Origin: a bacterium
GTDB taxonomy: Bacteria; UBA8248
Length of the DNA stretch: 64,000 bases
Assembly: GCA_965199855.1 (NCBI GenBank)
Contig: OZ241326.1
Coordinates: 2,211,908 to 2,275,907, forward strand
Reading direction: 5' to 3'
The notes beneath the pieces were generated by a model. That model saw only the letters and a list, made by a program, of their open reading frames with translations. It had not been told where the DNA came from and made no database searches. Shown in pieces: positions 1 to 40,748 of this stretch (positions are counted from its first letter, which is position 1; the number at the start of each line of letters is the position of its first letter). Made by a program: the position numbers and the translations under genes.

Positions 1-465
1 CGCCATGCTCATGTTCTCGGCGCCCGTCCCCTTGGCGGCGAAGTAGAGCTTCAGGCGATCCCCGGCGACGACGCGGTAGTGGATGACGGCGGGCGTGTTG
101 TCCTTCGTGTTCACGCGCCGGAGCGGGTCGTTCACCACCGAGCCGCGCAGGTAGCCGTCCCGGTAGCCCTGGCGAATCCCCTCGTTGATGGCGTCCTCCA
201 GAAGCCCGCCCGTCACGCGGACGTCCTGCCCCAGCTCGACGAACACGATGGAGACGCCCGTGTCCTGGCAGTAGGGCACGCGCTCGGCGGAGGCGAGCGC
301 CGCGTTCTCGGTGATCTGGTCGAGCACCATGAGGCCGAGGGCGGAGGTCTCGCGGCCCTTCGCCTCCTCGACCTTCGCCACGTAGGCGGGATCGACGCGG
401 TAGTTCGACTCGATGGCCATCTCGCGGATCCTGGCCGTCACCTCGCCCGCGTCTATCGTTCGCAT
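1..465 (-). CDS. Fe-S (class I) fumarate hydratase / tartrate dehydratase alpha-type subunit, N-terminal 155 codons; 3' end lies beyond the window
   Basis: Not in the ORF track because it is open to the window edge. Own translation of the reverse strand from ATG (465-463): MRTIDAGEVTARIREMAIESNYRVDPAYVAKVEEAKGRETSALGLMVLDQITENAALASAERVPYCQDTGVSIVFVELGQDV... The PYCQDTG segment and overall pattern match what I recognise from class I fumarase/TtdA alpha domains. Same strand as icd-mdh and downstream of them. Confidence 0.75.
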   Translation of the reverse strand, partial: MRTIDAGEVTARIREMAIESNYRVDPAYVAKVEEAKGRETSALGLMVLDQITENAALASAERVPYCQDTGVSIVFVELGQDVRVTGGLLEDAINEGIRQGYRDGYLRGSVVNDPLRRVNTKDNTPAVIHYRVVAGDRLKLYFAAKGTGAENMSMA

Positions 466-514
466 GGCCCGCCCGTCCCCAAGGCGCTCGCCGCCCGCCG
501 CGGAGGCGGCGCGC

Positions 515-4133
<3,619 letters not shown>

Positions 4134-4259
4134 TCGATATTTCGATTGGGTTGTTGTTCTTTGATACGCCGCTATAATCGGATCGAGCCGATCCTCCAGC
4201 TCGCTTCGGCTGACCAGAAACGCCTTGTTTTCATCGCAGGACCGGCGAAGATTGAAGCC

Positions 4260-6392
4260 TCATGTCCCTCCCGCCTCGACGGCTTCAATGAAGCGGGCGA
4301 GCTCCTCGCCGATGCCTTCCAGCTCGTTATTGTCTGTCGGTCTCCCCGCGGCGTCATAGCCGATATCCCCGGCTACCGCCATGAATACCGGAGAATCGCC
4401 CAATACGCTTCGCTTTCGCTCCGCATATTCCCGCTCCATGGTTTCCCGGAGCGCATCGATTTTTCCCCGGCATTCGGCGCCGACCCGCTTTTTCCATTCC
4501 CTATAGTCTTCGGACAGGCTCAACGCTTTGCCTTCCAGCCCTTCCGGATTGTCAAAGCCTCTGAGTTCCTTGATCCGCCGCTTCTTCTCCGCGTCAATCT
4601 CCCGCAACTGCTCCGGAAAATCATGCTCTTCCCTGATTTCGTCCCGTATCTCCGCTTTCCGGTTGCGGATCTCGGCGGTTGCTTCCGAAGTCCGCTTTTT
4701 CAGGAACAGCACCGAGGTTTTCACCCCCGCCCCTTTCGCCTGAAACGCGGTTTGGGGCATGGACGCCACCGCCACGAGGCGGAAATTCTCCTCCATGCCC
4801 TCCCGCGCGTATTGGAGGCTGGAGTTGGTCAGGATGCCGTCGGGTATGACGATCGCCAGATAGCCTCCCTCGGCGAGAAACCTGTGGCATTGCTCGATAA
4901 ACAGAATTTCGGAGCTCTGGCTGTCCCGGACTGTTTCCTTGCTCTTCGGGTTCAGCCAGTCGGCTTTCTTGAGCGCGTAATCGTAGTGGCGCATGTAGGC
5001 TTGCTCGGTTCGCTTGATCTGGGAGCCGAACGGCGGATTCGTGATGATGAAGTGGAAGCGTCCGTAAACGAATCCGTTGTTTCTCGTGAGAGAAAAAATA
5101 TCGTCAGCGGACATCAGCCCGTCGGCGGCGATCACGTTCGTATGGCCGTCATCGTGGAGAATCATGTTCATCTTGGCGGTTCTGGCGATTCGATCGTTGA
5201 TTTCGATGCCGAATATGTTTTTTTCCGCGAAGCTGCGCCAGTGCCTGTCATAGTCTCTTGATTCCGCCAGATCTGCTTCAAAATTCGGATAGTATTCACT
5301 CGCCTGCCGCCTGACCTTGTCAAGCGCGTGAAGCAGAAACCCGCCGCTGCCGCAGGAGGTATCCAGAACCAGCGAGTCATTGGTTATCGGCAGCGCGTCC
5401 ACGATGAACTTCACGATGGGGCGAGGGGTGAAGAACTGCCCGAACTCTCCACGAAAATAAGAACCCATGAAAGTTTCAAAGGCCTTGCCCCTGCTGTCCA
5501 GATCGGTTTTTCCAAAATCGACGCCTTCCAGATAGCCGACGACGGTGCGCAACTTTTCGCAGCCGAGGCGAATATCCTCCTGAAAGACTTCGGGGTCTTT
5601 TTGCCGCCCCTCGGCATACAGGGCGCGGACGCGCTTTTGCAGTCCCTTGTTCGTCTTGTCTTCCGTGCTTTCGGTGAACACCTGAAAATCGTAGGGTTCC
5701 CCCTTTCTCCTGGGCTTTTTCTCGTCCCACATTTTGCAGAAAATCAGCTTGTTCAACTCGTCGAAGGCTAGCGAGGGGTCGAGTTGCCCACCCCCCCAAA
5801 GCGCCTGATGCGCCTGTCTGAACCTTCTCGTCAGCGCGTCTTCCGTTATGGCTTCGAGCTCGAACAGCCTTTGTCCGTTGGCGGAACCCCCGCCCCGGGC
5901 GTATTTGAACCTGGCGAGCCGGCTGACGCCGTATTGCGGGATATCGGGAATGGGCAAGCGCTTCTTCGGCTCTTTTTCGGGAATCTCGAAGCAGGCGTCT
6001 TTTATTCGGGAGGTTACCCAGAAATACCTGGCCCGGACTGTTCCCGTGGCGGCGTAGCTGAAAGCCTGGGCGACGGCCTGCTCGAACTCGGCTTCGGAGA
6101 CGTCCTCCGCCTTGCACTCGACGACGATATGGGCGGATTCACGCTCATCGTCGTTATAGACGATAATATCCGCCTCTCTGGTGTCCGCGCCGATTTTTAC
6201 CGGAACGAACTGCTCTATGCGCTCCGGGGCGTAGCGATAAACCAGAACCAGTTTGAGGAACGTCTCCGCCTGGACGGACTCTTCCGGCCGCGCGTAATTT
6301 CGCCTCTTGCCCTGGCGAACGTAGGTGATGTATTTCCCGTCGTCATCAAACGCGATCAAGCCTTTGTCTATTCCTTCGCGCAACAGATCCAT
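4260..6392 (-). CDS. hsdM: N6-adenine DNA methyltransferase (HsdM-like) with N-terminal HsdR_N / PD-(D/E)XK-like domain
   Basis: 710 aa. Has SAM motif I VLDTSCGSGGFL and catalytic motif IV IITNPPFG. The extra ~170-aa N-terminus carries a D...E-x-K signature (EADIIVY...HIVVECK). Directly upstream of hsdS and in the same reading frame. AT-richer than the flanks. Confidence 0.85.
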   Translation of the reverse strand: MDLLREGIDKGLIAFDDDGKYITYVRQGKRRNYARPEESVQAETFLKLVLVYRYAPERIEQFVPVKIGADTREADIIVYNDDERESAHIVVECKAEDVSEAEFEQAVAQAFSYAATGTVRARYFWVTSRIKDACFEIPEKEPKKRLPIPDIPQYGVSRLARFKYARGGGSANGQRLFELEAITEDALTRRFRQAHQALWGGGQLDPSLAFDELNKLIFCKMWDEKKPRRKGEPYDFQVFTESTEDKTNKGLQKRVRALYAEGRQKDPEVFQEDIRLGCEKLRTVVGYLEGVDFGKTDLDSRGKAFETFMGSYFRGEFGQFFTPRPIVKFIVDALPITNDSLVLDTSCGSGGFLLHALDKVRRQASEYYPNFEADLAESRDYDRHWRSFAEKNIFGIEINDRIARTAKMNMILHDDGHTNVIAADGLMSADDIFSLTRNNGFVYGRFHFIITNPPFGSQIKRTEQAYMRHYDYALKKADWLNPKSKETVRDSQSSEILFIEQCHRFLAEGGYLAIVIPDGILTNSSLQYAREGMEENFRLVAVASMPQTAFQAKGAGVKTSVLFLKKRTSEATAEIRNRKAEIRDEIREEHDFPEQLREIDAEKKRRIKELRGFDNPEGLEGKALSLSEDYREWKKRVGAECRGKIDALRETMEREYAERKRSVLGDSPVFMAVAGDIGYDAAGRPTDNNELEGIGEELARFIEAVEAGGT

Positions 6393-6742
6393 TCGCTTCT
6401 CATTTTCAGGAGGGGCTCGACACTATACGGGGGACGGGAGGGCGGATTCGACCATGCCATGAAAGCGAACCCGGTCGCCCCTTCCATATCACGTTCGCGC
6501 GGCTGACGCCAACCCGATCGGCGGAAATTTTCGATTCCGATGGAGTTTCGCCCCTCGGCTGTGGTAGGGTGGCCGCGCGTCAGCGGGAGGCGCCGCCCTT
6601 GCTCTCGTCACAGCCGCTTCCCGGTTCTTCGCCCGCGAAACGGCGAACCGGCCCGAAAGGCCCGCCGCCCGCGCGCCGATGAGCAAAGTCCGCAGAATCA
6701 ACCCGTTGCGCTCTCCTCCCCCGGCCCGAGGCACGGCCCGCC

Positions 6743-7573
6743 ATGACGCGCCCCGCCAGACGAAGGCTCGGCCAGCATTTCCTGCACGAGAAGAGGTATC
6801 TCTCGCAAATCATTGATTTGGCTGAAATCGCGCCTGGAGAGGACGTGCTGGAAATCGGCGTCGGCGAAGGGGCGCTCACGCGCTTCCTCCTTGACGCGGG
6901 CGCGCGCGTCCACGGCGTGGAGATAGACGACGCGCTCATCCCCCCCCTGCGCTCCCTCGAAGCCGCCAGCGAGCGCTTCCGCCTGATTCACGCAGACGCC
7001 CTCGCCCTCGACTACGACGCGTTGCCCGCCAGGATGAAGGTGGCGGCGAACCTTCCCTACCAAATCGCATCAGGCATCATCCTGCAACTCATTGAAAAAT
7101 ATGAGAAATTTCCCTTCATGATCCTCATGGCGCAGCGCGAGGCGGGCGAGCGGATCTGCGCGGAGCCGGGCGGGAAGGACTACGGCGCGCTCACCCTGCG
7201 GGTGGGCTACCGCTTCGAGGCGCGGCTGTGCGGGACGGTTCCTCCGGGGGCGTTCCGCCCCCCGCCCGGGGTGGATTCCGCCCTCGTCCGCCTCAAGGCG
7301 AGAGAAGCCCCCCAGGTGGAGGTGGGGGACGAGAGCCTCTATTTCCGGCTCATCCGGGCGGGCTTCGCCCACCGCAGAAAGACGCTGCTCAACAATCTCA
7401 GGTCGCTGGATTCGGGCGGGCTTGAGAAAGGAGAGCGCCGGGGCTTGCGCCCGGAGGACTGGCGAGGTCTCCTCGAAGGGCTGGGAATCGACCCCGGAAG
7501 GCGCGCCGAGACCCTCTCGGCCGGCGAGTTCGCGCGAATCGCCCGCGCCGTCGAGTCGAGGGGGCGGCCTTGA
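6743..7573 (+). CDS. rsmA: 16S rRNA (adenine1518/1519-N6)-dimethyltransferase
   Basis: 276 aa. Contains RRRLGQHFL and VLEIGVGEGALT (SAM motif), plus NLPYQIAS, all typical of KsgA/RsmA. Confidence 0.92.
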   Translation: MTRPARRRLGQHFLHEKRYLSQIIDLAEIAPGEDVLEIGVGEGALTRFLLDAGARVHGVEIDDALIPPLRSLEAASERFRLIHADALALDYDALPARMKVAANLPYQIASGIILQLIEKYEKFPFMILMAQREAGERICAEPGGKDYGALTLRVGYRFEARLCGTVPPGAFRPPPGVDSALVRLKAREAPQVEVGDESLYFRLIRAGFAHRRKTLLNNLRSLDSGGLEKGERRGLRPEDWRGLLEGLGIDPGRRAETLSAGEFARIARAVESRGRP

Positions 7574-8475
7574 GCGGCGGAATCCTGATCTACCGCATGG
7601 GGGCGTTCGGGGACACGCTCCTGCTCGCGCCGCTGCTCGGACGCCTGCGGGAGGCGCGCCCGGGCGTTCGCCTCACCCTGGCGGCGAACCCCGCATACGC
7701 CGCTCCCCTGCTCGACGCGGGGCTGGCGGAGGAGATTCTGGACGGGGGCGCGCCTCCCTTTCATCTTCTCTATGACGGGCGGCCATCGGAGAACGACGCG
7801 CTCGCCCGGCTCATCCGGCGGCATGACGCCTGCGTCTTCTACACCGCCGACCGCTCGGGAGAGCTGGCGAGGCGGCTGCGTTCATCGAGGCCGGAGAAAT
7901 GCCGCGTCCACCCCCCTTTCCCGCCGGAGGGGGAGAGCGTTCACGTCTGCGCGTGGATGACGCGGGCGTGGCCCGGCCTGAGCGCGTCCGCGCCTGAAAG
8001 CATGAAGCTGACGCCTTCGGAAAACAGCCTGTCTGAGGCGGACAACCTATTGAAAAAAAATGGCTTGCGACCTTCCCGCTTCTTCATCCTCCATCCCGGC
8101 GGAGGGGGCGAGAGAAAATGGCCGCCGCCCGACGTTCTCGCGGAGATGGGCCGCGCCCTCGCGCGCGAAACGGGGCATCAGCCGGTCGTGGCGGAAGGGC
8201 CGGCGGATTCGATCGCCAGCGAGAATTTCCAGAAGCTCCCGGGCGCGCCCCTGCCGGTCCTCAGGGAAACGCCGCCCGTCATCCTGGGCGCCCTGCTCTC
8301 GAGGTCGTCCGGGTATATCGGGGGCGATTCCGGCGTCTCCCATCTCGCCTCTCTCTACGCGCCGCGCGCCTCGATACTGTATGGCCCCCATTCCGACATG
8401 AGGGTCTGGCGACCGATAGGCTCCCGAACGCGCTGCCTGTCCTGGGAGGCGGAGCGGAGGAGCGCGTTCGGGTGA
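7570..8475 (+). CDS. glycosyltransferase family 9 (heptosyltransferase-like)
   Basis: 301 aa. The TTG start overlaps the rsmA stop (TTGA). N-terminus ILIYRMGAFGDTLLLAPLL and ILHPGGGGERKWP resemble the GT9 ADP-heptose transferase pattern. Confidence 0.75.
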   Translation: MSGGILIYRMGAFGDTLLLAPLLGRLREARPGVRLTLAANPAYAAPLLDAGLAEEILDGGAPPFHLLYDGRPSENDALARLIRRHDACVFYTADRSGELARRLRSSRPEKCRVHPPFPPEGESVHVCAWMTRAWPGLSASAPESMKLTPSENSLSEADNLLKKNGLRPSRFFILHPGGGGERKWPPPDVLAEMGRALARETGHQPVVAEGPADSIASENFQKLPGAPLPVLRETPPVILGALLSRSSGYIGGDSGVSHLASLYAPRASILYGPHSDMRVWRPIGSRTRCLSWEAERRSAFG

Positions 8476-8558
8476 CGGCGCGATCGGCGCGCGTCGGGAG
8501 ATTTCCCGTCCCGCGGCGTTCATTCCGGCGGGGAGAGACTGCCGCGGCGCGGCGGGCC

Positions 8559-9269
8559 TCAGCCGAGGATGTTCGCCAGCCTGCCCCAGCGCGGCGAGCC
8601 CGAATCCCCGTTCCATGACCAGTAGATCATGAAGGCGGAGCCCCGAATCTTGTCGTCCCAGCAGGGCGCGGACCACAGCGAGCAGGGAAAGGGCAGGCCG
8701 AAGGAGTAATCCCAAAAGCGTATGGGGATGTGATCCGCGCGCTCGCCCACCTTCAGAAAGCCCCAGAAGCGGCTGTCCTGGCTGTTGTTGCGGTTGTCGC
8801 CCAGCATGAAGAGGTGGCCCGGCGGGACCTTGCGGGGGCCCCATTCGCTCTCGAGGCTCCCGGCGGCGCCGTTGGGCTTGAAGCGCGCGTATTTCTCCTC
8901 CAGCGGCTCGCAGTTTCGGGGCGCGTCCGGCGTCGCGCAGTTGATGAAGACCCTTTTTCCGCGAACCATCACCACCTCGCCCGGCAGCGCGACCACCCGC
9001 TTGATGAAGTCCCGCCGCTCATCCTTGGGAAAGCGGAACACGATGATGTCCCCGCGCCTCGGCTTCCGCAGCCAGTAGATGAACTTGTTGACGAGTATGT
9101 GGTCTCCGACGAGGAGGGTGTTCTCCATGGAGCCGGAGGGTATCTTGAACGCCTGCACGACGAAGGCGCGCACGAACAGCGCCAGCAGCAGGGCGATGAC
9201 GATCGCCTCGGCGTATTCCCGAAAAACGGATTTCGACTTTCGCCCGCGCCCCGCCTTCTCGTCCGACAC
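8559..9269 (-). CDS. lepB: signal peptidase I
   Basis: 236 aa. Has a TM anchor, then the catalytic Ser box IPSGSMENTL, the Lys box RGDIIVFRFP...KRVVALPGE, and GDNRNNSQDSRFWGF. Confidence 0.93.
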   Translation of the reverse strand: MSDEKAGRGRKSKSVFREYAEAIVIALLLALFVRAFVVQAFKIPSGSMENTLLVGDHILVNKFIYWLRKPRRGDIIVFRFPKDERRDFIKRVVALPGEVVMVRGKRVFINCATPDAPRNCEPLEEKYARFKPNGAAGSLESEWGPRKVPPGHLFMLGDNRNNSQDSRFWGFLKVGERADHIPIRFWDYSFGLPFPCSLWSAPCWDDKIRGSAFMIYWSWNGDSGSPRWGRLANILG

Positions 9270-9273
9270 GCCC

Positions 9274-11076
9274 CTACTCCTTGCCCACGTCCAGAACCGC
9301 CATGAACGCCTCCTGGGGCACCTCGACGGTGCCGATGTTCTTCATGCGCTTCTTGCCCTCGCGCTGCTTTTCCAGCAACTTTCGCTTCCGCGTAATGTCG
9401 CCGCCGTAGCATTTCGCCGTAACGTCCTTCCGCAGCGCGCGAATCGTCTCCCGCGCGATCACCCGGTTGCCGACCGCCGCCTGAATGACCACCTCGAACA
9501 TCTGCTTCGGGATGATCTCCTTCATCTTCCGCACCAGCGCGCGGCCGTGATAATAGGCCTTCTCCTTGTGGATGATGGTGGAAAACGGGTCGATGGGCTG
9601 TCCGTTCAGCAGGACGTCCAGCTTCACCATCTCCGCCGGACGGTAGTCGAGGCGCTCGTAGTCGAAACTCGCGTATCCCCGGGAGGCGGACTTCAGCTTG
9701 TCGTAGAAATCGAAGAGTATCTCGCTGAAGGGCAGCTCATAGACGATCTGCACGGTATTCGTATCGATGTATTCCATGGAGCGCTGCGCGCCGCGCTTCT
9801 CCTGCGCCAGCCTGAGAACGCCGCCCACGTATTCGGCGGGCGCGAGGATGGTGCCCAGAATGAAGGGCTCCTCGATGGCCTCGATTCTCGACAGTTCGGG
9901 CAGCTTCGCGGGACTGTCGATTTCCGCGACCGTCGAATCGCTCAGCAGGACGCGGAAAATCACCGTCGGCGCCGTGATGATGAGCGTGAGGTCGTATTCG
10001 CGCTCGAGCCTCTCGCGGATGATCTCCATGTGCAGAAGCCCCAGGAACCCGCACCGGAAGCCGAACCCCAGAGCGACCGAGGTTTCCGGCTCGTAGGTGA
10101 AGGCCGAATCGTTGAGCCGGAGCTTCTCCAGCGCCGTCCTCAAGTCCTCATACTCGGCGCTGTCCGCCGCATACAGGCCGCTGTAGACCATCGCCTTCGG
10201 CTCCCGGAAGCCCTGAATGGCCTCGCGCGCGGGGTTTTTCGCCAGCGTGATGGTGTCGCCCACCCGGGTGTCGCTCACCTCCCGTATCGAAGCGGACAGG
10301 ATGCCCACCTCGCCCGGCCCGATTTCCTCTCTCCTGATCTCGCGGGGCGTGAACGCGCCCAGACTCAGCACCTGGTATTCCTTGCCGGTGGCCATGAAGC
10401 GGACGCCGTCGCCCTTGCGAATGGTTCCCTCGAACATGCGAAACAGCGGGATGGCGCCCTGGTAGGAATCATACCAGGAATCTATCACGAGCCCCCGCGG
10501 GGAGGCTTCCGGCTCTCCGCCCGGAGGCGGAATCCGCTCCACGATCGCCTCGAGGAGCGCGTCCACGCCCTCCCCCTGCTTCGCGCTCACCGTCAGGCAC
10601 TCCTCCGCGGCGATGCCGATGACGTCCTCCACCTGCCGCATCACGCGATCGGGGTCGGCCGCCGGCAGGTCGATCTTGTTGATCACCGGTATGATGACCA
10701 AGTCCTGCTCCAGCGCCAGATAGGCGTTCGCCATCGTCTGCGCCTGGATGCCCTGGGTGGCGTCAACGAGCAGCAGGGCGCCCTCGCAGGCCTGGAGGCT
10801 TCGGGAAACCTCGTAGCTGAAGTCCACGTGGCCGGGCGTATCGATGAGGTTGAAGACGTATTCCCCGCCCTTCGGCGACCTGTAGAGGATGCGGACCGTG
10901 GCCGCCTTGATGGTGATGCCCCGCTCCTGCTCCAGCGCCATCGAATCCAGCACCTGGGAGGACATCTCGCGCTCTGAAAGCGCTCCCGTCGTTTCGAGAA
11001 TGCGATCCGCCAGGGTGGATTTTCCATGGTCGATATGCGCGATGATGGAAAAGTTTCTGATTCTCTCGATGCTCAC
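9274..11076 (-). CDS. lepA: translation elongation factor 4
   Basis: 600 aa. Contains [22 protein letters not shown] (G1), DTPGHVDF (G3) and the LepA-specific C-terminus. Immediately upstream of lepB, the conserved lepA-lepB order. Confidence 0.96.
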
Positions 11077-11362
11077 GGCCGGGAAAAATCTCTCAGGGAA
11101 GGCGAATGGCGCGAATGCCGGAACCGCGTGACGTCAGCTGAAAGCACCGCCCCTCACCTTCGGTTCCCGCGCGGATGACGAAAAGCGACGCCGAAAGAGG
11201 CGCTGAACCCCCCGGCATCGGGCGAACACGCTATATCAGACTTCTCCGCGCCCGGTCAAATGGATTGCCCCCCGGGAACGCGCGGTGCTAGGATGCGCGA
11301 AGGGGCGCGCCTCGCTCACCCGCGCGCATTTCGCACCCGACGGAGCGGGATACCTTCAGCCC

Positions 11363-12760
11363 ATGCGTCGCCGCGGCCGAGACACCCTCATCCGCTTTTC
11401 CCTGCTGTCCGCCTTCGTCCTGTGCGCGCCGCCCGCGTCGGCGGAGAAGGAGCGCCCCTTCGGCGGACGCCTCATCATCGAAGCGGTCAGGAAGCTGCGG
11501 CCCTCCGTCGCGCATATCCGCGCGAAGCCGGGAGGCGCCGCGGCGAATCCCCTGCTCGACTTCTTCGGCAGGGGCAGGCGAAGGGAGGGCCCGCCCCGGT
11601 TCGATCAGGACGAGGCCGCCTACGGCGTAGGCGCGGGGATCATCGTCTCGAAAGAAGGGCACATCCTGACGAACCACCACGTCGTCAGGAACGCCCAGGA
11701 GATTCTGGTCAAACTCCACCGGGGCGAGGAATTCCCGGCCCGCCTGCTCGGCGTGGACGAGAAAACCGACCTCGCCCTCCTGAAGATCAAGCCTCCCGCG
11801 GACCTCCGGCCGGCAACTCTCGGCGATTCCGACAAAGCGGAGGTCGGCCAGTGGGTTCTGGCGATCGGCAGCCCTTTCGGCCTGGCGAATTCCGTATCCG
11901 TAGGCGTCATCAGCGGCAAGGAGCGGGATTTGAAGGAAGGCCCCTTTGACGAGTATCTCCAGACGGACGCCTCCATCAACCCGGGCAATTCCGGCGGGCC
12001 GCTCGCCGACGCGAAAGGCGCCGTCATCGGCGTCAACACGGCGATATTCTCCCGCGGCTCGCGCGCCTGGAGCCTGGGCGTCGGCTTCGCCATTCCGATA
12101 AACCAGGCCAGGGCCGTCATCGACTCCCTGCGCCACAGGGGCTATCCGATACGGGGCCGGCTGGGGGCGGCCGTGGCCGCCGTCCCCCCGAAGGAGGGGA
12201 AAGACCTGGGGCTGGCCCGCTCCCAGGGCGCGAAGCTCGCCGAGGTCGCGCGCGGCGGCCCCGCCCACCACGCCGGCCTGCGCCGGGGGGACGTGGTGGT
12301 CGAATTCGACGGCAAGCCGGTGAGCACCTGGCAGAGCCTTCCCCGCATCGTCGCCCGCGCGAAGCCGGATTCCCTCGTCCAGGTGAAGTTTTACCGCGAA
12401 AAGCGCCTGGAGAGCGTCTATGTCCGCCTGGGGAGCCGGCCCGAGGCGCCGCATTCCCGAAAGACGCCGGGCCGGACGAGCCTGGGCATGAAGGTCGAGG
12501 CGCTCACCCCGCACCTCGCCCGCCGCTTCGGGCTGGATTACGGCGAGAGCAAACTGGTGGTTTCCTCGATTCTGCGGGGCGGGGCGGCGGAGCGCGGCGG
12601 AATCAGGCCGGGCGACGAGATAGCGGAAGCGAACCACAAGCCCGTCCGGACGATAGAGGAGCTTCGGGAGGCCATCGACGCGTCCCGGCTCGACGGCTTC
12701 GTCCTCCTCCTTCTCAAGCGAAAAGGAACCAACCTCTTCGCCGCCCTCCAAATCAAATAG
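11363..12760 (+). CDS. periplasmic serine endoprotease, DegP/HtrA (Do) family
   Basis: ORF 11285..12760. I prefer ATG 11363 because it gives a signal peptide (MRRRGRDTLIRFSLLSAFVLCAPPASA). Catalytic triad contexts are HILTNHHVV, TDLALLKI and GNSGGPL, followed by two PDZ-like segments. Confidence 0.9.
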   Translation: MRRRGRDTLIRFSLLSAFVLCAPPASAEKERPFGGRLIIEAVRKLRPSVAHIRAKPGGAAANPLLDFFGRGRRREGPPRFDQDEAAYGVGAGIIVSKEGHILTNHHVVRNAQEILVKLHRGEEFPARLLGVDEKTDLALLKIKPPADLRPATLGDSDKAEVGQWVLAIGSPFGLANSVSVGVISGKERDLKEGPFDEYLQTDASINPGNSGGPLADAKGAVIGVNTAIFSRGSRAWSLGVGFAIPINQARAVIDSLRHRGYPIRGRLGAAVAAVPPKEGKDLGLARSQGAKLAEVARGGPAHHAGLRRGDVVVEFDGKPVSTWQSLPRIVARAKPDSLVQVKFYREKRLESVYVRLGSRPEAPHSRKTPGRTSLGMKVEALTPHLARRFGLDYGESKLVVSSILRGGAAERGGIRPGDEIAEANHKPVRTIEELREAIDASRLDGFVLLLLKRKGTNLFAALQIK

Positions 12761-12804
12761 CGCCTTCAGGACAGGCCCGGGCCGGCGCCCGCCGAACGGA
12801 CGGC

Positions 12805-13113
12805 TTTCGCAGGGACAACCCCCGTGGTTGTCCCTCGCCGCGTTCGCGTCCCGACGACGCGCAACCATCCCGTAGGGGGCGTTCGGGAACGCCCCGCCGC
12901 CGCCGATGCGAATCTTTCCTGAAAACGGGCGGCCCCGGGGCCCCGCCCTTGCGGAACCGGCGCCCATGGGCGACCCACCCAAACGGGCGGTTCCCGAATT
13001 GCGGGGCGGCCTCGGGGAGGGGTCGCCCCTACGGAACCGTCGCCATCTCCCGCCGTCATTCCGGCGAAGGCCGGAATCCAGGGGATTGTGATCGTTCCCC
13101 ATCGTCAATGAGA
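12805..13113. repeat. cluster of GC-rich REP-like hairpins (outside the large inverted repeat)
   Basis: Perfect short palindromes read directly: 12811-12835 AGGGACAACC-cccgt-GGTTGTCCCT; 12876-12895 GGGGCGTTC..GAACGCCCC; 13058-13077 ATTCCGGC-gaag-GCCGGAAT. Several are flanked by CGTAG/CTACG. No credible ORF. Confidence 0.7.
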
Positions 13114-13835
13114 GACAACCATAGGGGGTTGTTCCTGCGAAATGATGAAACCCGCGGCCCCATGCCGAAGGACGGGCGGGGCGCATGAATGCGCCCCCTA
13201 CGAAGGCGGGATCGCCGCCCGCCCCCGGAAAACCGGTTGCCTCGACCGTAGGGGACGCATTCATGCGTCCCGTTTCGATCGGTGGCCACGCGCGGGCGGT
13301 TCACGAACCGCCCCTACGGGAACCGTAGCCGCCCTCACCCATAGGGACGCCCCCCTGGGTCGCCCGACAATTCGGGAGCCGCCCGCGCGGGAAAATTCGC
13401 CGGGCGGAGGCGTTTCCCCGGGCGTTTGGAGAAGAACCGCCCGCTCGCCGAAAAGCCGCGCGTGAATGTCTACGAATTTCTGCAAAATCAGACAAATTCA
13501 CGGCCTTATCCCGCAAATAGAGAGCTGTTTTCCACCTTTTTAGAGACCCCTTTGACCATCCCGCCCGGTCCCCGATTCTTCCGTCTTCCTTCCCTCCGGA
13601 GGCGCAATTCCCCCACGCCGGAAATATAACCCGACCCGGCCGCCCCCGCGGAAGCGCAGATGCGCGCAAATGCGGGCAGGCGCGCGCGATTGTTCCACGT
13701 GGAACAATTCGGACGCGGAATTTTCGGAGGAAGCGTCCGGTTTTCGGCGCGGCCGCCGCTCCGCAAGCCTCGAAAAGGCGCGGTTCGCCCCGCCCGGCTC
13801 CGCTTTGCTGGCCATGCCCGCCGCCTACGCGCCGG
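13114..13835. repeat. left copy of 722-bp inverted repeat (non-coding; contains REP-like hairpins, an AT-richer core and parS)
   Basis: Reverse complement of 20005-20726. I checked both ends base by base and found one mismatch, at 13122/20718. Identical shadow peptides appear on opposite strands in the ORF track (13426..13629+ equals 20211..20414-; 13540..13815- equals 20025..20300+). Confidence 0.9.
13691..13706. other. parS-type ParB-binding palindrome TGTTCCACGTGGAACA
   Basis: Perfect 16-bp palindrome, extendable to 20 bp (13689-13708). Matches the parS consensus tGTTNCACGTGAAACa and is identical to the symmetric variant I recall from Pseudomonas parS sites. Confidence 0.7.
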
Positions 13836-13952
13836 GAGGCTTCCGTCCCGCGCGCGCCGCCTCCGCCTGATTGACATTCGGGCGTGGTGTCGTAATCTGC
13901 GGGGCGTTTCGGGGCTACACGGGAGCGGACGAACGGACGGCGGGGAGCGGAC

Positions 13953-14603
13953 ATGAAGATTTTCATCGATACGGCGAGTCTGGAGGAAATCGAGGAGGCG
14001 GCCTCCACCGGCATCCTGGACGGCGTGACGACGAACCCCTCGCTCATCGCGAAGGAAGGCGCCGACCACCACGCGAGAATCAGGGAAATCTGCGGGCTGG
14101 TGGACGGGCCGGTGAGCGCGGAGGTGATCGCCGTGAAGTGGGAGGAGATGGTCGAGGAGGGGCGGGCGCTGGCCGCCATCCACGAGAACGTGGTGGTGAA
14201 GGTTCCGGTGGGCGTGGAGGGGCTGCGCGCCGTCAAGGCGCTGCGCGAGGAGAGCGTCGACACGAACGTCACCCTCATCTTCAGCCCCGCCCAGGCCATG
14301 CTGGCGGCGAAGGCGGGCGCCTCGTTCGTGAGTCCCTTCGTGGGGCGGCTGGACGACGTCTCAAACCCCGGCATGGAGATGGTGAGCGACATCGCCCGGA
14401 TTTTTCACAACTACGACTACGCCGCCCAGGTTCTGGTGGCGAGCGTGCGCTCGCCGATTCACCTGCTCGAGGCGGCGAAGATGGGGGCGGACGCGGCGAC
14501 GGTTCCCTTTCAGGTCATCGCCCAGCTGCTCAAGCATCCGCTGACGGATATCGGGCTGGAGAAATTCCTGGCGGACTGGCGCCGCGCCGGCGAGATGCGC
14601 TGA
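13953..14603 (+). CDS. short-form transaldolase / fructose-6-phosphate aldolase family
   Basis: 216 aa. Contains [32 protein letters not shown] and [11 protein letters not shown]. Confidence 0.9.
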
Positions 14604-14625
14604 CTTTCAGGGAGGTTCAGGGATG

Positions 14626-14853
14626 ATGCCGATGTATGAATTTCTGTGCGGAAGCTGCGAGAAGGATTTTGAGAAAATCGTGGCGTCCGTCGAGGCCGCC
14701 GACCGCGTGGAGTGTCCCGAATGCGGCTCGCGCGAGGCGCGCCGGAAACTCTCCCTGTTCGCCAAATCCGCATCGGGCGCCGCGGCCCAGGCCTCGGCCT
14801 TCAGCGGCTACTCCGCCGGCGGCGGCTGCGGCGGGGCGTGCTCGTGCCACTAG
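14626..14853 (+). CDS. FmdB-family zinc-ribbon protein
   Basis: MPMYEFLCGSCEKDFE...VECPECGS gives a CxxC...CxxC ribbon, followed by an Ala/Gly/Cys-rich tail. The start could be 14623, 14626 or 14632. Confidence 0.75.
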   Translation: MPMYEFLCGSCEKDFEKIVASVEAADRVECPECGSREARRKLSLFAKSASGAAAQASAFSGYSAGGGCGGACSCH

Positions 14854-14937
14854 CCCCGCGGGGGCGCTGAATCCGCGCTTCCGCCGGGCCGATTCGCGCG
14901 CGATCCTTCGGGAATCTTTCAGCAGGGAGGAGAGACC

Positions 14938-16188
14938 ATGCCGCAAGAGGAGCAGGTCAGCGTCTTCGAGACCGCGAGCGCGCAGTTCGACGAGGCGGCG
15001 GCGCACGTCGATCTGGACGATGAGGTTCGCCACCTCCTCAAGACGCCCTTCCGCGAGGTGAAGGTAGAAATCCCCATCCGCAGGGACGACGGCTCTCTCG
15101 GCGTCTGGGAGGGATACCGCATCCAGTTCAACGGCGCGCGGGGGCCGTTCAAGGGCGGAATCCGCTACCACCACGAGGTGGACCCGGACGAGGTGCGCGG
15201 CCTCTCCGCGCTCATGGCGTGGAAGACGGCGCTCGTCAACATTCCGTTCGGGGGCGGCAAGGGCGGCATCTGCGTCAACGTGGGGGAGCTCAGCCGCTTC
15301 GAGCTGGAGCGGCTCACGAGAAAATACACCGCGCGCATCGGGCGCGTCCTGGGGCCCTACCGCGACATTCCCGCCCCCGACGTGAACACGAACGCGCAGG
15401 TGATGGCGTGGATTTTCGATGAATACAGCAGCCGCCACGGCTACGCGCCGGCCTGCGTCACGGGAAAGCCCGTGTCCATGGGCGGCTCCCCGGGGCGCGA
15501 GGCCGCCACCGGGCGGGGCGCCGTGATGGCGTTCGGGGAGGTCGCCAAAAAGGAGGGCTGGGAGCCCGCCACCATGACGGCGGCGATTCAGGGCTTCGGG
15601 AACGTGGGCGCCTTCGCCGCCAGGTTCATCGGCGATCTGGGGGTGAAGGTGGTGGCGATATCGGGCAGCCGGGGCGCCTGCTTCAACGGGGACGGCGTCG
15701 ACGTCGAGGCGGCCGCCGCCCACCGCAGGGAGCACGGGACGCTGGAGGGCCTCGCGGGAGCGGAGGAGATCACCAACGAGGAGCTTCTCGCCCTCGACGT
15801 GGACGTCCTGGTTCCGGCGGCTCTCGGCGGCGCGATTCACGCGGGCAACGCGGCGGACGTGAAGGCGCGCGTCATCGTGGAAGGGGCGAACGCTCCCGTA
15901 ACCGACCGGGGCGAGAAGACGCTGGCCGAGAGCGGCCGCGTCGTGGTGATACCCGACGTGCTGGCGAGCGCGGGCGGCGTCACGGTCTCCTACTTTGAAT
16001 GGGCGCAGAACATCCAGCAGTTCGCCTGGGACGAGGAGCGGGTGAACGCCGAGCTGGGCAGAATCATGGCGCGCGCCACGGCCGAGGTGCATGAGCTGGC
16101 GAAGGAGAAAGGCGTCTCGCTGCGCGCGGCGGCCTTCATCATCGCGATTGAAAGGGTGGCGGAGGCGGAGCGCCTTCGCGGCGTATAG
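14938..16188 (+). CDS. Glu/Leu/Phe/Val dehydrogenase (glutamate dehydrogenase-like)
   Basis: 416 aa. Contains KGGIRYHHEV, the catalytic Lys box IPFGGGKGGI and the GFGNVG dinucleotide fold. Confidence 0.9.
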   Translation: MPQEEQVSVFETASAQFDEAAAHVDLDDEVRHLLKTPFREVKVEIPIRRDDGSLGVWEGYRIQFNGARGPFKGGIRYHHEVDPDEVRGLSALMAWKTALVNIPFGGGKGGICVNVGELSRFELERLTRKYTARIGRVLGPYRDIPAPDVNTNAQVMAWIFDEYSSRHGYAPACVTGKPVSMGGSPGREAATGRGAVMAFGEVAKKEGWEPATMTAAIQGFGNVGAFAARFIGDLGVKVVAISGSRGACFNGDGVDVEAAAAHRREHGTLEGLAGAEEITNEELLALDVDVLVPAALGGAIHAGNAADVKARVIVEGANAPVTDRGEKTLAESGRVVVIPDVLASAGGVTVSYFEWAQNIQQFAWDEERVNAELGRIMARATAEVHELAKEKGVSLRAAAFIIAIERVAEAERLRGV

Positions 16189-16214
16189 CGTCCGCCGCCC
16201 CGCTGGAGCTTTCG

Positions 16215-17129
16215 TTGGCTGGTCTCGTCATAGACGCCCGGGGCATCGAAAAATCCTTCGGAACCCTCCGGGCCGTCGCCGGCGTCTCGCTCCAGGTGGA
16301 GCCCGGAGAGTGCTTCGGCATTCTGGGCCCCAACGGCGCGGGCAAAACCACGACAATCAAGATGCTGCACGGCGCCGTTCAGCCCGACGCGGGCGTCCTG
16401 CGGGTGCTCGGCCTCGACGTGGCGACCCAGAGCCGGCTCGTTCGGGAGGGGATGGGCGTCGTATCGCAGGAGGACACGCTGGACCGCGATTTGACGGTAT
16501 ATGAGAACCTCTGGGTCTATGCGGGATTTTTCGGCATCTCGAGGAAGGCGTCGCTCTCCCGCATCGAGCATCTGCTCGACTTCCTGCAGCTTCGGGAAAA
16601 GTGGGACTCGAAGATCAAGACCCTCTCGGGCGGAATGAAGCGCCGCCTCCACATCGCGCGCGCCCTGATCCATGAGCCGAAGTTCCTGATTCTGGACGAA
16701 CCCACCACGGGCCTCGATCCGCAGGCGAGGCATCTCGTCTGGCGCAGGCTCCGGGAGCTCGGCGACCGGGGGCTGACCATTCTTCTCACCACCCATTACA
16801 TGGAAGAGGCGGCGCGGATGTGCGATCGCATCGGCATCATGGACGGGGGGAGATTTCTTCTCGAAGGCGCGCCGCAGGCGCTGGTGCGCGAACATGTGGG
16901 CGATGAGGCGTATGAACTCAAGGGCGGCGCGCCGCGGGAACTGCTCGACTCCCTGAAAAGCCTCCACGTCGGCGCCGAGGTCGCCGCGGACAGGCTGTAT
17001 CTCTACAGCCGCAACGGAGCGGGGCTGATGGAGCGCCTGATCGCCTCGGGGCGGAAGGATTTTCTGAGAAGGCCCGCGACCCTGGAGGATTTGTTCCTGC
17101 GGCTCACGGGCAGGGAATTGAGGGATTGA
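16215..17129 (+). CDS. ABC transporter ATP-binding protein (ABC-2 / DrrA-NodI-like)
   Basis: Walker A GPNGAGKTT, signature LSGGMKRR, Walker B FLILDEPTTGLD. TTG start as in the track. Confidence 0.9.
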   Translation: MAGLVIDARGIEKSFGTLRAVAGVSLQVEPGECFGILGPNGAGKTTTIKMLHGAVQPDAGVLRVLGLDVATQSRLVREGMGVVSQEDTLDRDLTVYENLWVYAGFFGISRKASLSRIEHLLDFLQLREKWDSKIKTLSGGMKRRLHIARALIHEPKFLILDEPTTGLDPQARHLVWRRLRELGDRGLTILLTTHYMEEAARMCDRIGIMDGGRFLLEGAPQALVREHVGDEAYELKGGAPRELLDSLKSLHVGAEVAADRLYLYSRNGAGLMERLIASGRKDFLRRPATLEDLFLRLTGRELRD

Positions 17130-17902
17130 CGCTCCTCCCCCAGGCTCCGAGCCGCCGCGCCCTCCGCGTCTGGGTTCGCCATCTGGTCTATTACCGCTCC
17201 TTCTATCTGGCGGAATGGGCGGGCAATCTGGGGGAGCACGTTCTGTGGCTCGTGGCGTTCGGCTACGGGCTGGGCAGGCTGGTGCCGAGCCTGGACGGCG
17301 TCTCATACGCGCAGTTCATCGGCCCCGGGCTGATGGTTTCCGTCGCGATGTGGAACGCGACGTATGAATCCACCTACGGCGCCTATTCGAGAATGCGGAT
17401 TCAGAACATCTACGAGTCCATGCTGATGGCCCCGCTCACGGTGGGCGACATCGTGCTGGGCGATCTTCTCTGGTGCGCGAGCCGCGCGCTGATCGGCTCG
17501 ACGCTGATGCTGCTCGTCCTGAGCCTGTTCGGGCTGGTCGGCTCGTGGTGGGCGGCGGCGATCCTTCCGGTTCTGTTCGTCGAGGCGGTGATGTTCGCGG
17601 CCCTGGGGCTGATCGCGACCTCGCTGGCGCCCAGCTTCTCGTTCTTCAACTTTTACTTCTCCGCCGTCGTCATGCCCATGTTTTTCTTCGCGGGCGCCCT
17701 GTTTCCCATCAAGGGCCTGCCGGCGTGGGTGGAGCGCATATCCGACGCCCTCCCGCTGACCCACGCCGTGAGAATCTCGCGCGGCCTGTTCCTTTACGGG
17801 CGGGTCGAGCATTTTCTCTGGCACTTTTCCTTCCTGCTCGGCTTCACGCTCCTGTTTCTCGCGGTCGCCTGCTTTCTGGTGGGCAGGCGCATGGCGGAAT
17901 GA
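17126..17902 (+). CDS. ABC-2 type transporter permease
   Basis: 258 aa with about six hydrophobic segments. 4-nt overlap with the ATPase gene. Confidence 0.85.
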   Translation: MTLLPQAPSRRALRVWVRHLVYYRSFYLAEWAGNLGEHVLWLVAFGYGLGRLVPSLDGVSYAQFIGPGLMVSVAMWNATYESTYGAYSRMRIQNIYESMLMAPLTVGDIVLGDLLWCASRALIGSTLMLLVLSLFGLVGSWWAAAILPVLFVEAVMFAALGLIATSLAPSFSFFNFYFSAVVMPMFFFAGALFPIKGLPAWVERISDALPLTHAVRISRGLFLYGRVEHFLWHFSFLLGFTLLFLAVACFLVGRRMAE

Positions 17903-18870
17903 GCGTGGGCGCCGCGGCGAAAATCCTGCATCCGCCGGAGCCGTTCCTGTTCCATGAGAGTCTGCTGCGCTTTCGCGCGTCGAGCGGGGAGCTCGTCAAT
18001 TCCTACGCGGACGGGGCGTATCGCAGGGTGGTGGAGACCGCCGCCGGCGCGCTGGTTCTCCTGGAGGCCAGGAGCGGGGAGGAGGGGCGAGGCGGCCCGA
18101 TTCGGCTTCAGATGACCGCCGAGGGACGGATGAGCGAATCGCTCCAAGGCGCGGGGCTGGACGCCATCAGGCACATTCTGGCTTTTGATCTCGATTTGAA
18201 GCCGTTTTACGGGATGGCGGGGCGCGACGCCGACCTGGCGCCGATTGCGAGGAAATTCAGGGGTCTCAGGCCGGTGCGCTACCCGAGCGCGTTCGAGGCG
18301 CTCGTTACGGCGATTACGGCGCAGCAGGTGAACCTGACCTTCGCCGGGACGATACGCGGGCGCATGGTGAAGCGATGGGGCGGAAAGCTGCGCGTCGGCG
18401 GACGGACGCGCTACGCCTTTCCGCGCCCGGAGCGCCTGGCGCGGGCGCGCGTCTCCACCCTGCGCGCCATGCAGTTCTCGGAGCGAAAGTCGGAATACGT
18501 GATTGGCGTGGCGCGCGCCGCCCTGGAAGGACGGCTGGACGAGGGCGAGCTGCGCGCTCTGCCCGTTGAGGAGGCGGTGGCCCGGCTCGCCGGAATACGG
18601 GGCGTGGGCCGCTGGACGGCGGAGCAGACGCTGTTTCGGGCGCTTGGCCGCGTGGAGGTTTTCCCCGGGGGCGACCTGGGGGTGCGGAAGGTCGTGGCGC
18701 GCTATTGCTTCGGAGAGGAGCGCGTGGACGAGGAGCGCGCGCGCGGGCGGGCGGACGCATGGCATCCCTGGGCTTCGCTGGCGACGACCTATCTGTTCGC
18801 CGCGTGGCGCGCGGGCGTTGCGCCCGCGGGCGAAGCGAAACGGCGCATCGGGAATCGGGCGCGCGGATGA
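17899..18870 (+). CDS. HhH-GPD DNA glycosylase (AlkA / 3-methyladenine glycosylase II-like)
   Basis: In-frame part of ORF 17473..18870. ATG 17899 overlaps the permease stop (ATGA). Helix-hairpin-helix LAGIRGVGRWTAEQTL and the Asp region FPGGDLGVRK are present. Confidence 0.8.
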   Translation: MSVGAAAKILHPPEPFLFHESLLRFRASSGELVNSYADGAYRRVVETAAGALVLLEARSGEEGRGGPIRLQMTAEGRMSESLQGAGLDAIRHILAFDLDLKPFYGMAGRDADLAPIARKFRGLRPVRYPSAFEALVTAITAQQVNLTFAGTIRGRMVKRWGGKLRVGGRTRYAFPRPERLARARVSTLRAMQFSERKSEYVIGVARAALEGRLDEGELRALPVEEAVARLAGIRGVGRWTAEQTLFRALGRVEVFPGGDLGVRKVVARYCFGEERVDEERARGRADAWHPWASLATTYLFAAWRAGVAPAGEAKRRIGNRARG

Positions 18871-20015
18871 GCGGCTTTCGGGCCTCCATCGAACGGCGGG
18901 AAGAAGAGCTGCTGGCGCCCTGCGCGGCGCGCAGCGCCGAGAGTCTCGGGCGAAGGCACCCGGAAGCCGAGCACGGGATGCGGACGGCGTTTCAGCGCGA
19001 TCGCGACCGGATCATCCACACGCAGGCCTTCCGGAGGCTTGAATACAAGACCCAGGTCTTCGTGAACCACGAAGGGGACCATTACCGGACGCGCCTGACG
19101 CACACCATAGAGGTGAGCCAGATCGCGCGCTCCATCGCCCGCGCGCTCTCCCTGAACGAAGACCTCGCCGAAGCGGTCGCGCTCGCGCACGATTTGGGCC
19201 ACCCCCCCTTCGGCCACGCCGGGGAGAAGGTTCTGGACGCCCTCATGGAGGAGCGCGGCGGGTTCGAGCACAACCTGCAGGCGCTGCGGATCGTCGAGGC
19301 GCTGGAGAGGCGCTACCCCGCCTTTCCGGGCCTGAACCTGACGTGGGAGACGCGCGAGGGAATCATCAAGTATCTGGATCGCTATGACGGCCCGATGCCC
19401 CGGGGGCTGACGAACGCGATCGCCCCCGGCCTGGAGGCCCAGGTGGTCGACGCGGCGGACGAGATCGCCTACAACAACCACGACCTGGACGACGGCCTCT
19501 CCTCCCGGCTGTTCGGCCTTGAAGACTTGCGGGACGCCCGCCTTTGGCGCGAACACCACGAAAACTCGAAGAAAGCCTTTCCCGAAGCTCCCCGGCGGGA
19601 GCGCAAGCACGACGTCATCCGCCGCATCATCAACGCGCAGGTTCAGGACATCATCGCGTCCGCGCGCGAGCGCGTTCGGCGCCGGGGGCTGCGCCGCATC
19701 TCGGACGTGCGGGAAGGCGGGCATGACGCGGTTGTCTTCAGCGAGGAGATGCGCGGGAAGAACGCCGAGCTCAAGCGCTTCCTGATGGAGCGGATGTACC
19801 GGAACGAGCGGGTGCTGAGACTGGAGGAAAGCGCCCGGGAAACGCTGAGCGGGCTGTTTCGCCTCTACGTCGCCGAGCCTCGCAGGATACCGGAGCACGC
19901 CCGCAGGCGCGAGGAAACGGACGGCCGGCATCGAATGGTCTGCGACTACGTCGCCGGCATGACGGACCGCTACGCCCTCCAGCAGCACGAGCGGTGGCTG
20001 GGCGCCGGCGCGTAG
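18867..20015 (+). CDS. dgt: dGTP triphosphohydrolase-family HD-domain protein
   Basis: In-frame part of ORF 18705..20015. ATG 18867 overlaps the alkA-like stop (ATGA). Contains RTRLTHTIEVSQIARSIA...ALAHDLGHPPFGH. The last 11 nt, including the stop, lie inside the right inverted repeat. Confidence 0.88.
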   Translation: MSGFRASIERREEELLAPCAARSAESLGRRHPEAEHGMRTAFQRDRDRIIHTQAFRRLEYKTQVFVNHEGDHYRTRLTHTIEVSQIARSIARALSLNEDLAEAVALAHDLGHPPFGHAGEKVLDALMEERGGFEHNLQALRIVEALERRYPAFPGLNLTWETREGIIKYLDRYDGPMPRGLTNAIAPGLEAQVVDAADEIAYNNHDLDDGLSSRLFGLEDLRDARLWREHHENSKKAFPEAPRRERKHDVIRRIINAQVQDIIASARERVRRRGLRRISDVREGGHDAVVFSEEMRGKNAELKRFLMERMYRNERVLRLEESARETLSGLFRLYVAEPRRIPEHARRREETDGRHRMVCDYVAGMTDRYALQQHERWLGAGA

Positions 20016-20726
20016 GCGGCGGGCATGGCCAGCAAAGCGGAGCCGGGCGGGGCGAACCGCGCCTTTTCGAGGCTTGCGGAGCGGCGGCCGCGCCGAAAAC
20101 CGGACGCTTCCTCCGAAAATTCCGCGTCCGAATTGTTCCACGTGGAACAATCGCGCGCGCCTGCCCGCATTTGCGCGCATCTGCGCTTCCGCGGGGGCGG
20201 CCGGGTCGGGTTATATTTCCGGCGTGGGGGAATTGCGCCTCCGGAGGGAAGGAAGACGGAAGAATCGGGGACCGGGCGGGATGGTCAAAGGGGTCTCTAA
20301 AAAGGTGGAAAACAGCTCTCTATTTGCGGGATAAGGCCGTGAATTTGTCTGATTTTGCAGAAATTCGTAGACATTCACGCGCGGCTTTTCGGCGAGCGGG
20401 CGGTTCTTCTCCAAACGCCCGGGGAAACGCCTCCGCCCGGCGAATTTTCCCGCGCGGGCGGCTCCCGAATTGTCGGGCGACCCAGGGGGGCGTCCCTATG
20501 GGTGAGGGCGGCTACGGTTCCCGTAGGGGCGGTTCGTGAACCGCCCGCGCGTGGCCACCGATCGAAACGGGACGCATGAATGCGTCCCCTACGGTCGAGG
20601 CAACCGGTTTTCCGGGGGCGGGCGGCGATCCCGCCTTCGTAGGGGGCGCATTCATGCGCCCCGCCCGTCCTTCGGCATGGGGCCGCGGGTTTCATCATTT
20701 CGCAGGAACAACCCCCTGTGGTTGTC
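20005..20726. repeat. right copy of 722-bp inverted repeat
   Basis: Reverse complement of 13114-13835 (see the left copy). Confidence 0.9.
20134..20149. other. parS-type ParB-binding palindrome TGTTCCACGTGGAACA (second copy)
   Basis: Same 16-mer as at 13691-13706, at the mirrored position within the right repeat copy. Confidence 0.7.
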
Positions 20727-20760
20727 CTTCGCCGCGTTCGCCAGTCCGGGCGTTTCCCCC

Positions 20761-21042
20761 TTACCCGAACCGCCCGGCATTCAGCCGCCAATAGACCTCC
20801 GTCCCCTTGAGCGCGGCGTTCTCTTTGGCGTGATGCCACGGCGTCTTGCCCTCTTTATCCTCCGCCGCGGGATCGGCTCCGGCGGCGAGCAACGCTTCCG
20901 CGACCGCGGGGGTTTTGCTGAACTTCGCCGCCGCCACATGCAGGGGCGTCCGTCCATCCTTGATCCGCGCGTTCGGGTTCGCCCCGGCGGCGAGCAAGCC
21001 TCCTCCGCCGCCCGCTCCCCCGCCGAAGAAGAAGTAAGGCAT
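20761..21042 (-). CDS. small ankyrin-repeat protein (possibly truncated)
   Basis: 93 aa with two ankyrin-like units (DGRTPLHVAAAKFSKTPAVAEALLAAGADPAAEDKEGKTPWHHA). The Gly-rich N-terminus starts in mid-repeat. Confidence 0.5.
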   Translation of the reverse strand: MPYFFFGGGAGGGGGLLAAGANPNARIKDGRTPLHVAAAKFSKTPAVAEALLAAGADPAAEDKEGKTPWHHAKENAALKGTEVYWRLNAGRFG

Positions 21043-29290: not shown

Positions 29291-29326
29291 AAAAAAAACG
29301 CCACGCCCCGGGGGGCATGGCGTTCG
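29291..29326 (-). terminator. intrinsic terminator of the pyrR leader (attenuator)
   Basis: On the minus-strand transcript the sequence reads ACGCCAUGCCCC-CC-GGGGCGUGGCGU followed by U8. This is a GC-rich stem with one G-U pair and then eight U. It sits about 40 nt upstream of the pyrR ATG. Confidence 0.7.
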
Positions 29327-29360
29327 GACGATGAGCGAAAAGACACCGGGCATCCGCGCT

Positions 29361-29398
29361 TCCTCCTTCGCCGCCTCACGGGACGGCATTAAAGGGGA
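29361..29398 (-). promoter_or_regulatory. PyrR-binding (anti-antiterminator) RNA hairpin
   Basis: The minus-strand transcript reads CCCCUUUAAUGCCGUCCCGUGAGGCGGCGAAGGAGG. The core UCCCGUGAGGC matches the PyrR loop consensus UCCAGAGAGGC at 9 of 11 positions. The flanking CCUUUAA...GAAGG lower stem fits the PyrR binding-site motif as I remember it. It lies directly upstream of the terminator. Confidence 0.6.
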
Positions 29399-40696: not shown

Positions 40697-40748
40697 GGCG
40701 GGCGTCGAGCGCAACCATCATCCCAAACCAGCCTGCGGGAGCCGCGAG

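Follow-up and report, generated by a model that had tools for sequence, protein, structure and literature searches.

A pair of predicted chromosomal parS sites on an apparently recombining, species-specific inverted repeat in a Nitrospinota bacterium

Chromosomal parS sites are commonly regarded as old fixtures linked to the origin, and in many bacteria they form clusters larger than two. Large inverted repeats are a separate and equally familiar feature of genomes, and flip-flop inversion between them is known from the plastid IR and from rrn- or IS-flanked inversions in bacteria. Among the characterized parS sites, parS2 and parS3 of Pseudomonas aeruginosa consist of the 16 letters TGTTCCACGTGGAACA (PMC4368675), Pseudomonas putida parS is exactly the same sequence, and the parS of Myxococcus xanthus is one base off (PMC7022226). 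In Pseudomonas, the DNA enriched in ParB around such sites spans more than 20 kb (PMC4368675, PMC7022226, PMC5098823), and the consensus obtained by ParB ChIP-seq in P. aeruginosa is TGTTCCACGTGGAACM; in the same bacterium, parS supports correct segregation only within ~650 kb around oriC (PMC5098823).

Here we describe a locus within a 64-kb stretch of bacterial DNA (hereafter, the window, that is, the whole of the DNA analysed; ~68% G+C), the nearest homologues of which are named Nitrospinae or Nitrospinota bacterium. The window contains two copies of the same 16-mer that, on balance, are probably two genuine chromosomal parS sites, the predicted nucleation and loading sites of ParB, carried by a species-specific, recombining inverted repeat of ~0.72 kb. 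The biology of a parS site is itself of a standard, well-known kind. The features of the locus are collected in Table 1.

Table 1. Features of the parS-bearing inverted repeat and its surroundings, in window positions.
Feature	Position	Strand	Remarks
Left parS-like 16-mer, TGTTCCACGTGGAACA	13691-13706	.	core of the 20-nt palindrome 13689-13708
Right parS-like 16-mer, TGTTCCACGTGGAACA	20134-20149	.	mirror image of the left site, inside the repeat
Left arm of the 722-nt inverted repeat	13114-13835	.	non-coding
Right arm of the 722-nt inverted repeat	20005-20726	.	inner 11 nt are the end of dgt
Segment between the arms	13836-20004	+	6169 nt, tal to dgt
25-nt motif adjoining parS, TGCGCGCAAATGCGGGCAGGCGCGC	13661-13685	.	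mirror copy at 20155-20179
A+T-rich core of the element	13474-13537	.	mirror copy at 20303-20366; identical in four full-length arms
Putative tal promoter, TTGACA-16 nt-TAATCT	13871-13898	+	outside the repeat, inside the invertible segment
Hairpin motif, GGGACAACC...GGTTGTCCC + TCGCCGCGTTCGC	12805-12847	.	downstream of degP

The first-pass annotation of this DNA had reported two perfect parS-type sites 6.4 kb apart and had matched the 16-mer to the perfectly palindromic parS of Pseudomonas. Both statements are borne out: the two copies are exact, no other match occurs in the window at up to 3 mismatches (0.09 expected; none of 100 shuffled sequences reaches 2), and the letters are those of P. 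aeruginosa parS2/parS3 and P. putida parS throughout (PMC4368675, PMC7022226). A search with the degenerate consensus TGTTNCACGTGNAACA, allowing up to 2 mismatches, returns the same two window sites only. All 16 positions agree with the parS consensus tGTTNCACGTGNAACa, the 16-mer fits the P. aeruginosa ChIP-seq consensus (PMC5098823), and the palindrome around it, 20 nt in full (ATTGTTCCACGTGGAACAAT), has 50% G+C and no loop. From base composition, an exact copy is expected ~5e-6 times per window and ~4e-4 times per 5-Mb genome. Across the 196 loci fetched for comparison (2.36 Mb, many phyla), matches to the parS consensus with at most 1 mismatch are confined to the element of one species, so that a chance origin of the 16-mer is very unlikely. 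The two copies count as one observation and are not independent, both being located inside one inverted repeat.

The sites also lie, as had been stated, within a duplicated non-coding element. The two arms are identical at 721 of 722 positions (the sole mismatch is 13122/20718, and the match is perfect over 13123-13835 and 20005-20717), and no ORF in them has a coding-like GC3. The outer half of the left arm is rich in REP-like G+C hairpins and is followed by the A+T-rich core and then by parS near the inner end. The core sequence of the 722-nt element includes TTCTGCAAAATCAGACAAATTCACGGCC, and the 25-nt motif that adjoins parS is the sole long non-REP stretch of the element seen in a relative (a 24-nt match in the dgt-degP spacer of locus L192). 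The outer boundary of the repeat falls inside a REP-like hairpin. Downstream of degP, this hairpin occurs again, as a motif 93% like 20698-20741, the sequence straddling the outer end of the right arm. At the opposite, inner end of the right arm, Dgt terminates in ...WLGAGA-stop, the final two codons and the stop coming from the 11 nt of the arm; the Dgt proteins of the relatives end in ...WLGA-stop, ...WLEA-stop or ...WLDA-stop, which implies that the arm replaced the original stop codon. The inner end of the left arm lies ~35 nt upstream of the TTGACA box of the putative tal promoter, which was identified by reading the sequence and scores below the threshold of the consensus scan; the box and its context are kept in L011 and L188. 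A consensus scan of the left arm for promoters and terminators found none.

Other roles for the element were considered and rejected. As a small RNA or riboswitch, it reaches the gathering score of no Rfam family (the best match is a miRNA model, with 29 of 84 bits), and the REP hairpins account for its DNA fold z-score of -4.1. As an oriC, the A+T-rich core offers only weak look-alikes of DnaA boxes; neither dnaA nor dnaN is present, and the skew has no turning point when the effect of the inversion is set aside.

The gene labels assigned in the first-pass annotation, with degP and tal on the left and dgt and an ankyrin gene on the right, are correct. By Pfam domains and gene calls on matching contigs, the left flank consists of lepB (-), lepA (-) and degP (+), followed by the left arm. 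The segment between the arms encodes, all on the plus strand, tal, a Zn-ribbon gene, gdh, an ABC ATPase, an ABC-2 permease, an HhH-GPD glycosylase and dgt, and the right arm is followed by the ankyrin gene (-), DUF3465 (-), carB (-), the pyr genes, surA, mfd, rodZ and further genes. The ankyrin-repeat gene (20761-21042, minus strand), which adjoins the right arm, is 89.8% identical between strains, and its neighbours are at least 98% identical.

No ParA, ParB or DnaA domain is present among the window ORFs scanned, in agreement with the earlier statement that the window contains no parAB or origin genes. An outward walk by exact-protein matches, ~10 kb on each side, likewise reached no parAB, dnaA or further parS in the window or past either end (L091 on the left, L100-L107 on the right), and across the roughly 85 kb of the species that were covered, only two parS sites occur. 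Past the right end, the walk terminated at a gene for a TRAP transporter permease (DctM-domain), and homologue searches with this permease and with Dgt led to related megabase-scale contigs; neither the last gene nor the Ank allele of the window has an exact match among the records looked up. The cumulative GC skew across the window has no turning point except the inverted block; the per-gene skew weakly suggests that the origin is located to the right of the window. In that direction, same-species contigs L101, L102 and L104 contain the right part of the window and extend a further 34-127 kb (the right-extending contigs are ENA scaffolds of 76-84 kb and the 152-kb JGI contig Ga0100159_100020); the left end of the L101 scaffold is at about window 20.6 kb, that is, at the right arm.

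Several features elsewhere in the window are recorded here in their own right. The UGSC-family (PF24696) gene at 43134-43754 (+) contains an in-frame TGA at 43416-43418 (...AVGD-U-GSCTSW...), and 11 nt downstream of this codon there is a hairpin, CGTCGTGG-AGTAT-CCACGACG, that resembles a bacterial SECIS element; the gene probably encodes a selenoprotein and is reported by ORF finders as two pieces. An island of low G+C (54-56%) at 2719-6742 separates icd from ksgA, which abut in the relatives, and on matching contigs encodes a 710-aa N6_Mtase/Eco57I-type enzyme and a 381-aa specificity (Methylase_S) subunit. A second low-G+C patch, at 60900-62000, has two minus-strand ORFs (157 and 176 aa) of unknown type and is strain-dependent in content, with a 288-aa ORF in L102 and L103. 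A PyrR-binding leader (RF00515, 56 bits) lies at 29291-29399 (-), upstream of the pyrR-pyrB-pyrC-carA-carB operon, and tandem pairs of paralogues are present in 40695-43103 and 55752-57787 (two acyl-CoA dehydrogenases, with blocks up to 87% identical, and two Zn-dependent alcohol dehydrogenases).

The arrangement of the locus differs among assemblies of the species. In the window, the block has tal on the degP side and dgt on the side of the ankyrin gene. The degP-arm-tal junction is also spanned by contig L093, which is collinear with window 1-14702 (99.77% identity over 14.7 kb). Judging by its name and by frameshifts in its gene calls, L093 is apparently a low-coverage long-read assembly, and because its arm is ~2% different from that of the window, it represents another strain or sample. 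In L001, the order is Ank-arm-tal..dgt-arm-degP, with a 728-nt repeat of its own and in agreement with all relatives, although L001 is a short-read scaffold, the path of which through the repeat may be arbitrary. These gene orders strongly indicate that the 6-kb block occurs in both orientations and that the arms recombine. By the same comparison, the L001-type order is the apparent ancestral state and the window orientation is derived. The derived state of the window orientation is supported by the base composition of the block: the coding-strand GC skew of its genes reaches +0.17 (mean ~+0.08), like that of the minus-strand genes of the window, whereas the other plus-strand genes have a skew near zero. 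The occurrence of the segment between the arms in both orientations had been overlooked in the first-pass annotation.

No recombinase or transposase was found near the repeat among the window ORFs scanned and the putative tal promoter is inside the block, which points to ordinary homologous recombination and not to a regulatory switch. Compared with a site-specific invertase switch, the arms are 722 nt long, there is no recombinase domain, and the tal promoter moves with the segment. Given a palindromic parS in two mirror-image copies, an inversion of the block would leave the geometry of ParB loading unchanged; with the promoter travelling along, the inversion thus looks like a by-product of the repeat rather than a switch.

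The age of the element can be approached by comparison with eleven related loci (L011, L012, L188-L196; Dgt identity 77-88%), several of which are on contigs of 0.8-4.5 Mb; a scan of GTDB genomes for copies of the element or close genomes found only relatives, with Dgt identity up to 80%. In all relatives that reach past dgt (all but L189), tal..dgt converges on degP-lepA-lepB, and those that reach upstream of tal have carB and a short ORF before it. The inverted repeat and parS are absent from all eleven loci, including L189, which ends before degP and is also without both. The dgt-degP spacers of the relatives are ~90-180 nt long, with the exception of L192, where this spacer (L192:11144-12371) is a REP-rich stretch of 1.2 kb without parS. 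The L192 spacer has in common with the element the family-wide REP hairpins, the 24-nt motif (GCGCGCCTGCCCGCATTTG.GCGCA) and an A+T-rich stretch, and may be a diverged counterpart of part of it. The position upstream of tal is, in the relatives, a variable island with Ank, ParDE, HigB, HEPN, Mrr and ORF6N genes. Because the genes are the same in the related loci while the repeat and parS are both missing there, a recent, species-specific gain of the element together with parS is strongly indicated. Conservation of the site stops at the species boundary, which leaves no basis for invoking long-term selection.

The species itself is represented in many metagenome assemblies, with genes 99.1-99.8% identical at the nucleotide level. 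The 16-mer is found in further same-species assemblies (six, given as L001 twice, L002, L003 twice and L093), and parS is seen in every same-species contig that extends far enough (L001, L002, L003, L093). Short-read contigs mostly end at the arms (6171-6871 nt), so the repeat is hard to assemble. Between strains, the element is 89.6-92.8% identical, compared with 98-100% for the flanking genes and other spacers; no DNA nearby varies more. Within the window and within L001, the two arms are virtually identical to each other; those of L003 are 94% identical over 201 nt and those of L004 85% over 99 nt, with the caveat that metagenome contig ends could mix strains. This mosaic, with nearly identical arms in some strains and diverged arms in others, suggests intermittent gene conversion between the arms. 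In an alignment of six distinct arms, 40 of the 202 columns vary, and positions 13690-13709 are invariant and flanked by variable sites at 13686-13689 and 13710-13717; the 20-mer is retained in both non-identical arms of L003. The invariance amid variable flanks suggests that parS is under constraint. The argument is modest: other blocks of the element, runs of 64 and 116 nt, are as invariant as parS.

How, then, do the alternatives fare against the reading of the 16-mers as genuine parS sites? The sites could be competent for ParB binding yet idle, that is, ectopic parS located far from the origin, tolerated or mildly harmful, and with no role in segregation. Such a reading is consistent with the absence of parS from all sister genomes, with the lack of parAB, dnaA and other parS within ~10 kb beyond the window and with a very young acquisition. 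However, the 20-mer is intact in every arm while the flanks vary, and, as parS of P. aeruginosa works only near oriC, an idle distal site has no obvious reason to persist; we consider this reading unlikely. The 722-nt element could, furthermore, be a non-autonomous mobile or REP-associated element that copies parS to new sites, as would befit two copies at sites that in the relatives are short, element-free spacers, an insertion that replaced the dgt stop codon, an outer boundary in a REP-like hairpin with a further occurrence downstream of degP, and a load of REP-like palindromes common to the family. What makes such mobility quite improbable is that the features of MITE- or IS-like elements are missing: the arm ends have neither terminal inverted repeats nor target-site duplications, no transposase or recombinase is nearby, the two copies are the only ones in the window and the same-species extension contigs L091-L107, and searches of plasmids, phages, IMG/VR and JGI metagenomes gave no match. 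In addition, the diverged counterpart in L192 suggests local descent, not import. The suggestion of the first-pass annotation that the element is a vehicle that spreads parS is therefore retained in part: parS did come on a non-coding element of ~0.7 kb, but the lack of terminal repeats, target duplications, a third copy and matches in the collections speaks against the spread.

It appears very unlikely that the palindrome serves as operator for an unrelated transcription factor, one that reads a CACGTG core and controls the tal-dgt operon: the left copy is intergenic, ~165 nt upstream of the putative -35 box of tal, but no regulator gene is adjacent, the second copy is downstream of dgt, the relatives have the same operon and promoter without the site, and all 16 positions match the parS consensus. 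The variable island upstream of tal in the relatives, with its toxin-antitoxin, HEPN, Mrr and ORF6N genes, could be taken to indicate that the sites are the remnant of an integrated plasmid or phage partition locus. Nevertheless, the arms are flanked by neither parA/parB nor other mobile-element genes, such as would accompany a plasmid or phage partition site, nor is there any similarity to the plasmid and phage records searched, and the sequence is of the chromosomal parS type, so that we regard such a remnant as highly improbable. Finally, the breakage of short-read contigs at the arms (6171-6871 nt) might raise the suspicion of an assembly artefact, with a collapsed or chimeric repeat producing a false duplicate. 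This is hardly credible: the arms of the window differ at one base and accordingly were not collapsed by the assembler, the independent contig L093 spans an arm, and L003 and L004 read from the unique interior into two non-identical arms.

Under the preferred reading, in which the two palindromes are chromosomal parS sites, each palindrome would be bound by ParB dimers, which would form closed, CTP-dependent clamps and slide outwards. With outward-sliding clamps loaded 6.4 kb apart, the two sites would be expected to seed a single, merged ParB domain over the 6-kb block and its flanks, and this domain would serve ParA-driven segregation and SMC loading. The parS pair itself apparently arose by inverted duplication of a young, fast-evolving intergenic element. 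The outer boundary in a REP-like hairpin and the putative L192 counterpart favour local, REP-associated duplication over an imported mobile element.

The contrast with the view of parS as a fixture is that a perfect parS is present in one species and missing at the same locus in eleven related loci, having seemingly arrived on a 0.7-kb non-coding insertion and become at once a recombining mirror-image pair. If the window is origin-proximal, the locus would be a dated example of the growth of a parS cluster; if it is distal, it would be a natural ectopic-parS experiment in an uncultured bacterium. A more ambitious proposition, which we hold to be a long shot, is that a non-coding, repeat-rich cassette acts as a duplicative carrier and has seeded two ParB loading sites away from the ancestral parS cluster. 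Were it true, the locus would capture the birth and movement of bacterial centromere sites in progress, with the seeding accomplished within the lifetime of one species and the resulting repeat flipping a 6-kb housekeeping block. The practical consequences are small, namely, a ParB domain over tal-dgt and a repeat that breaks assemblies.

With respect to known systems, the window shares with P. aeruginosa parS2/parS3 and P. putida parS an identical 16-nt sequence and, with Pseudomonas parS in general, the presence of several copies a few kilobases apart. The Pseudomonas sites, however, are within ~15 kb of oriC, close to parAB and outside any long inverted repeat, whereas the two sites of the window belong to one duplicated element gained in a single species, with no parAB or origin in the window. 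The parS cluster of M. xanthus (TGTTCCACGTGGAACG) is similar in its GGAAC-type half-sites, with one base different, and in having multiple sites for one ParB complex, but comprises ~22 sites clustered near parAB, as opposed to the two sites found here without a nearby parAB. The outer half of the arm, a string of G+C-rich hairpins with variants nearby and in the relatives, resembles REP/BIME elements; the differences are that parS is loopless, has 50% G+C and fits a protein-binding consensus, and that the whole element is 722 nt long with an A+T-rich core. The inversion has its counterpart in the flip-flop systems, with which the locus shares long, near-identical inverted arms, a segment that apparently occurs in both orientations, probable gene conversion and no need for a dedicated recombinase, and from which it differs in that the arms are non-coding, span just 0.72 kb and carry a centromere-like site.
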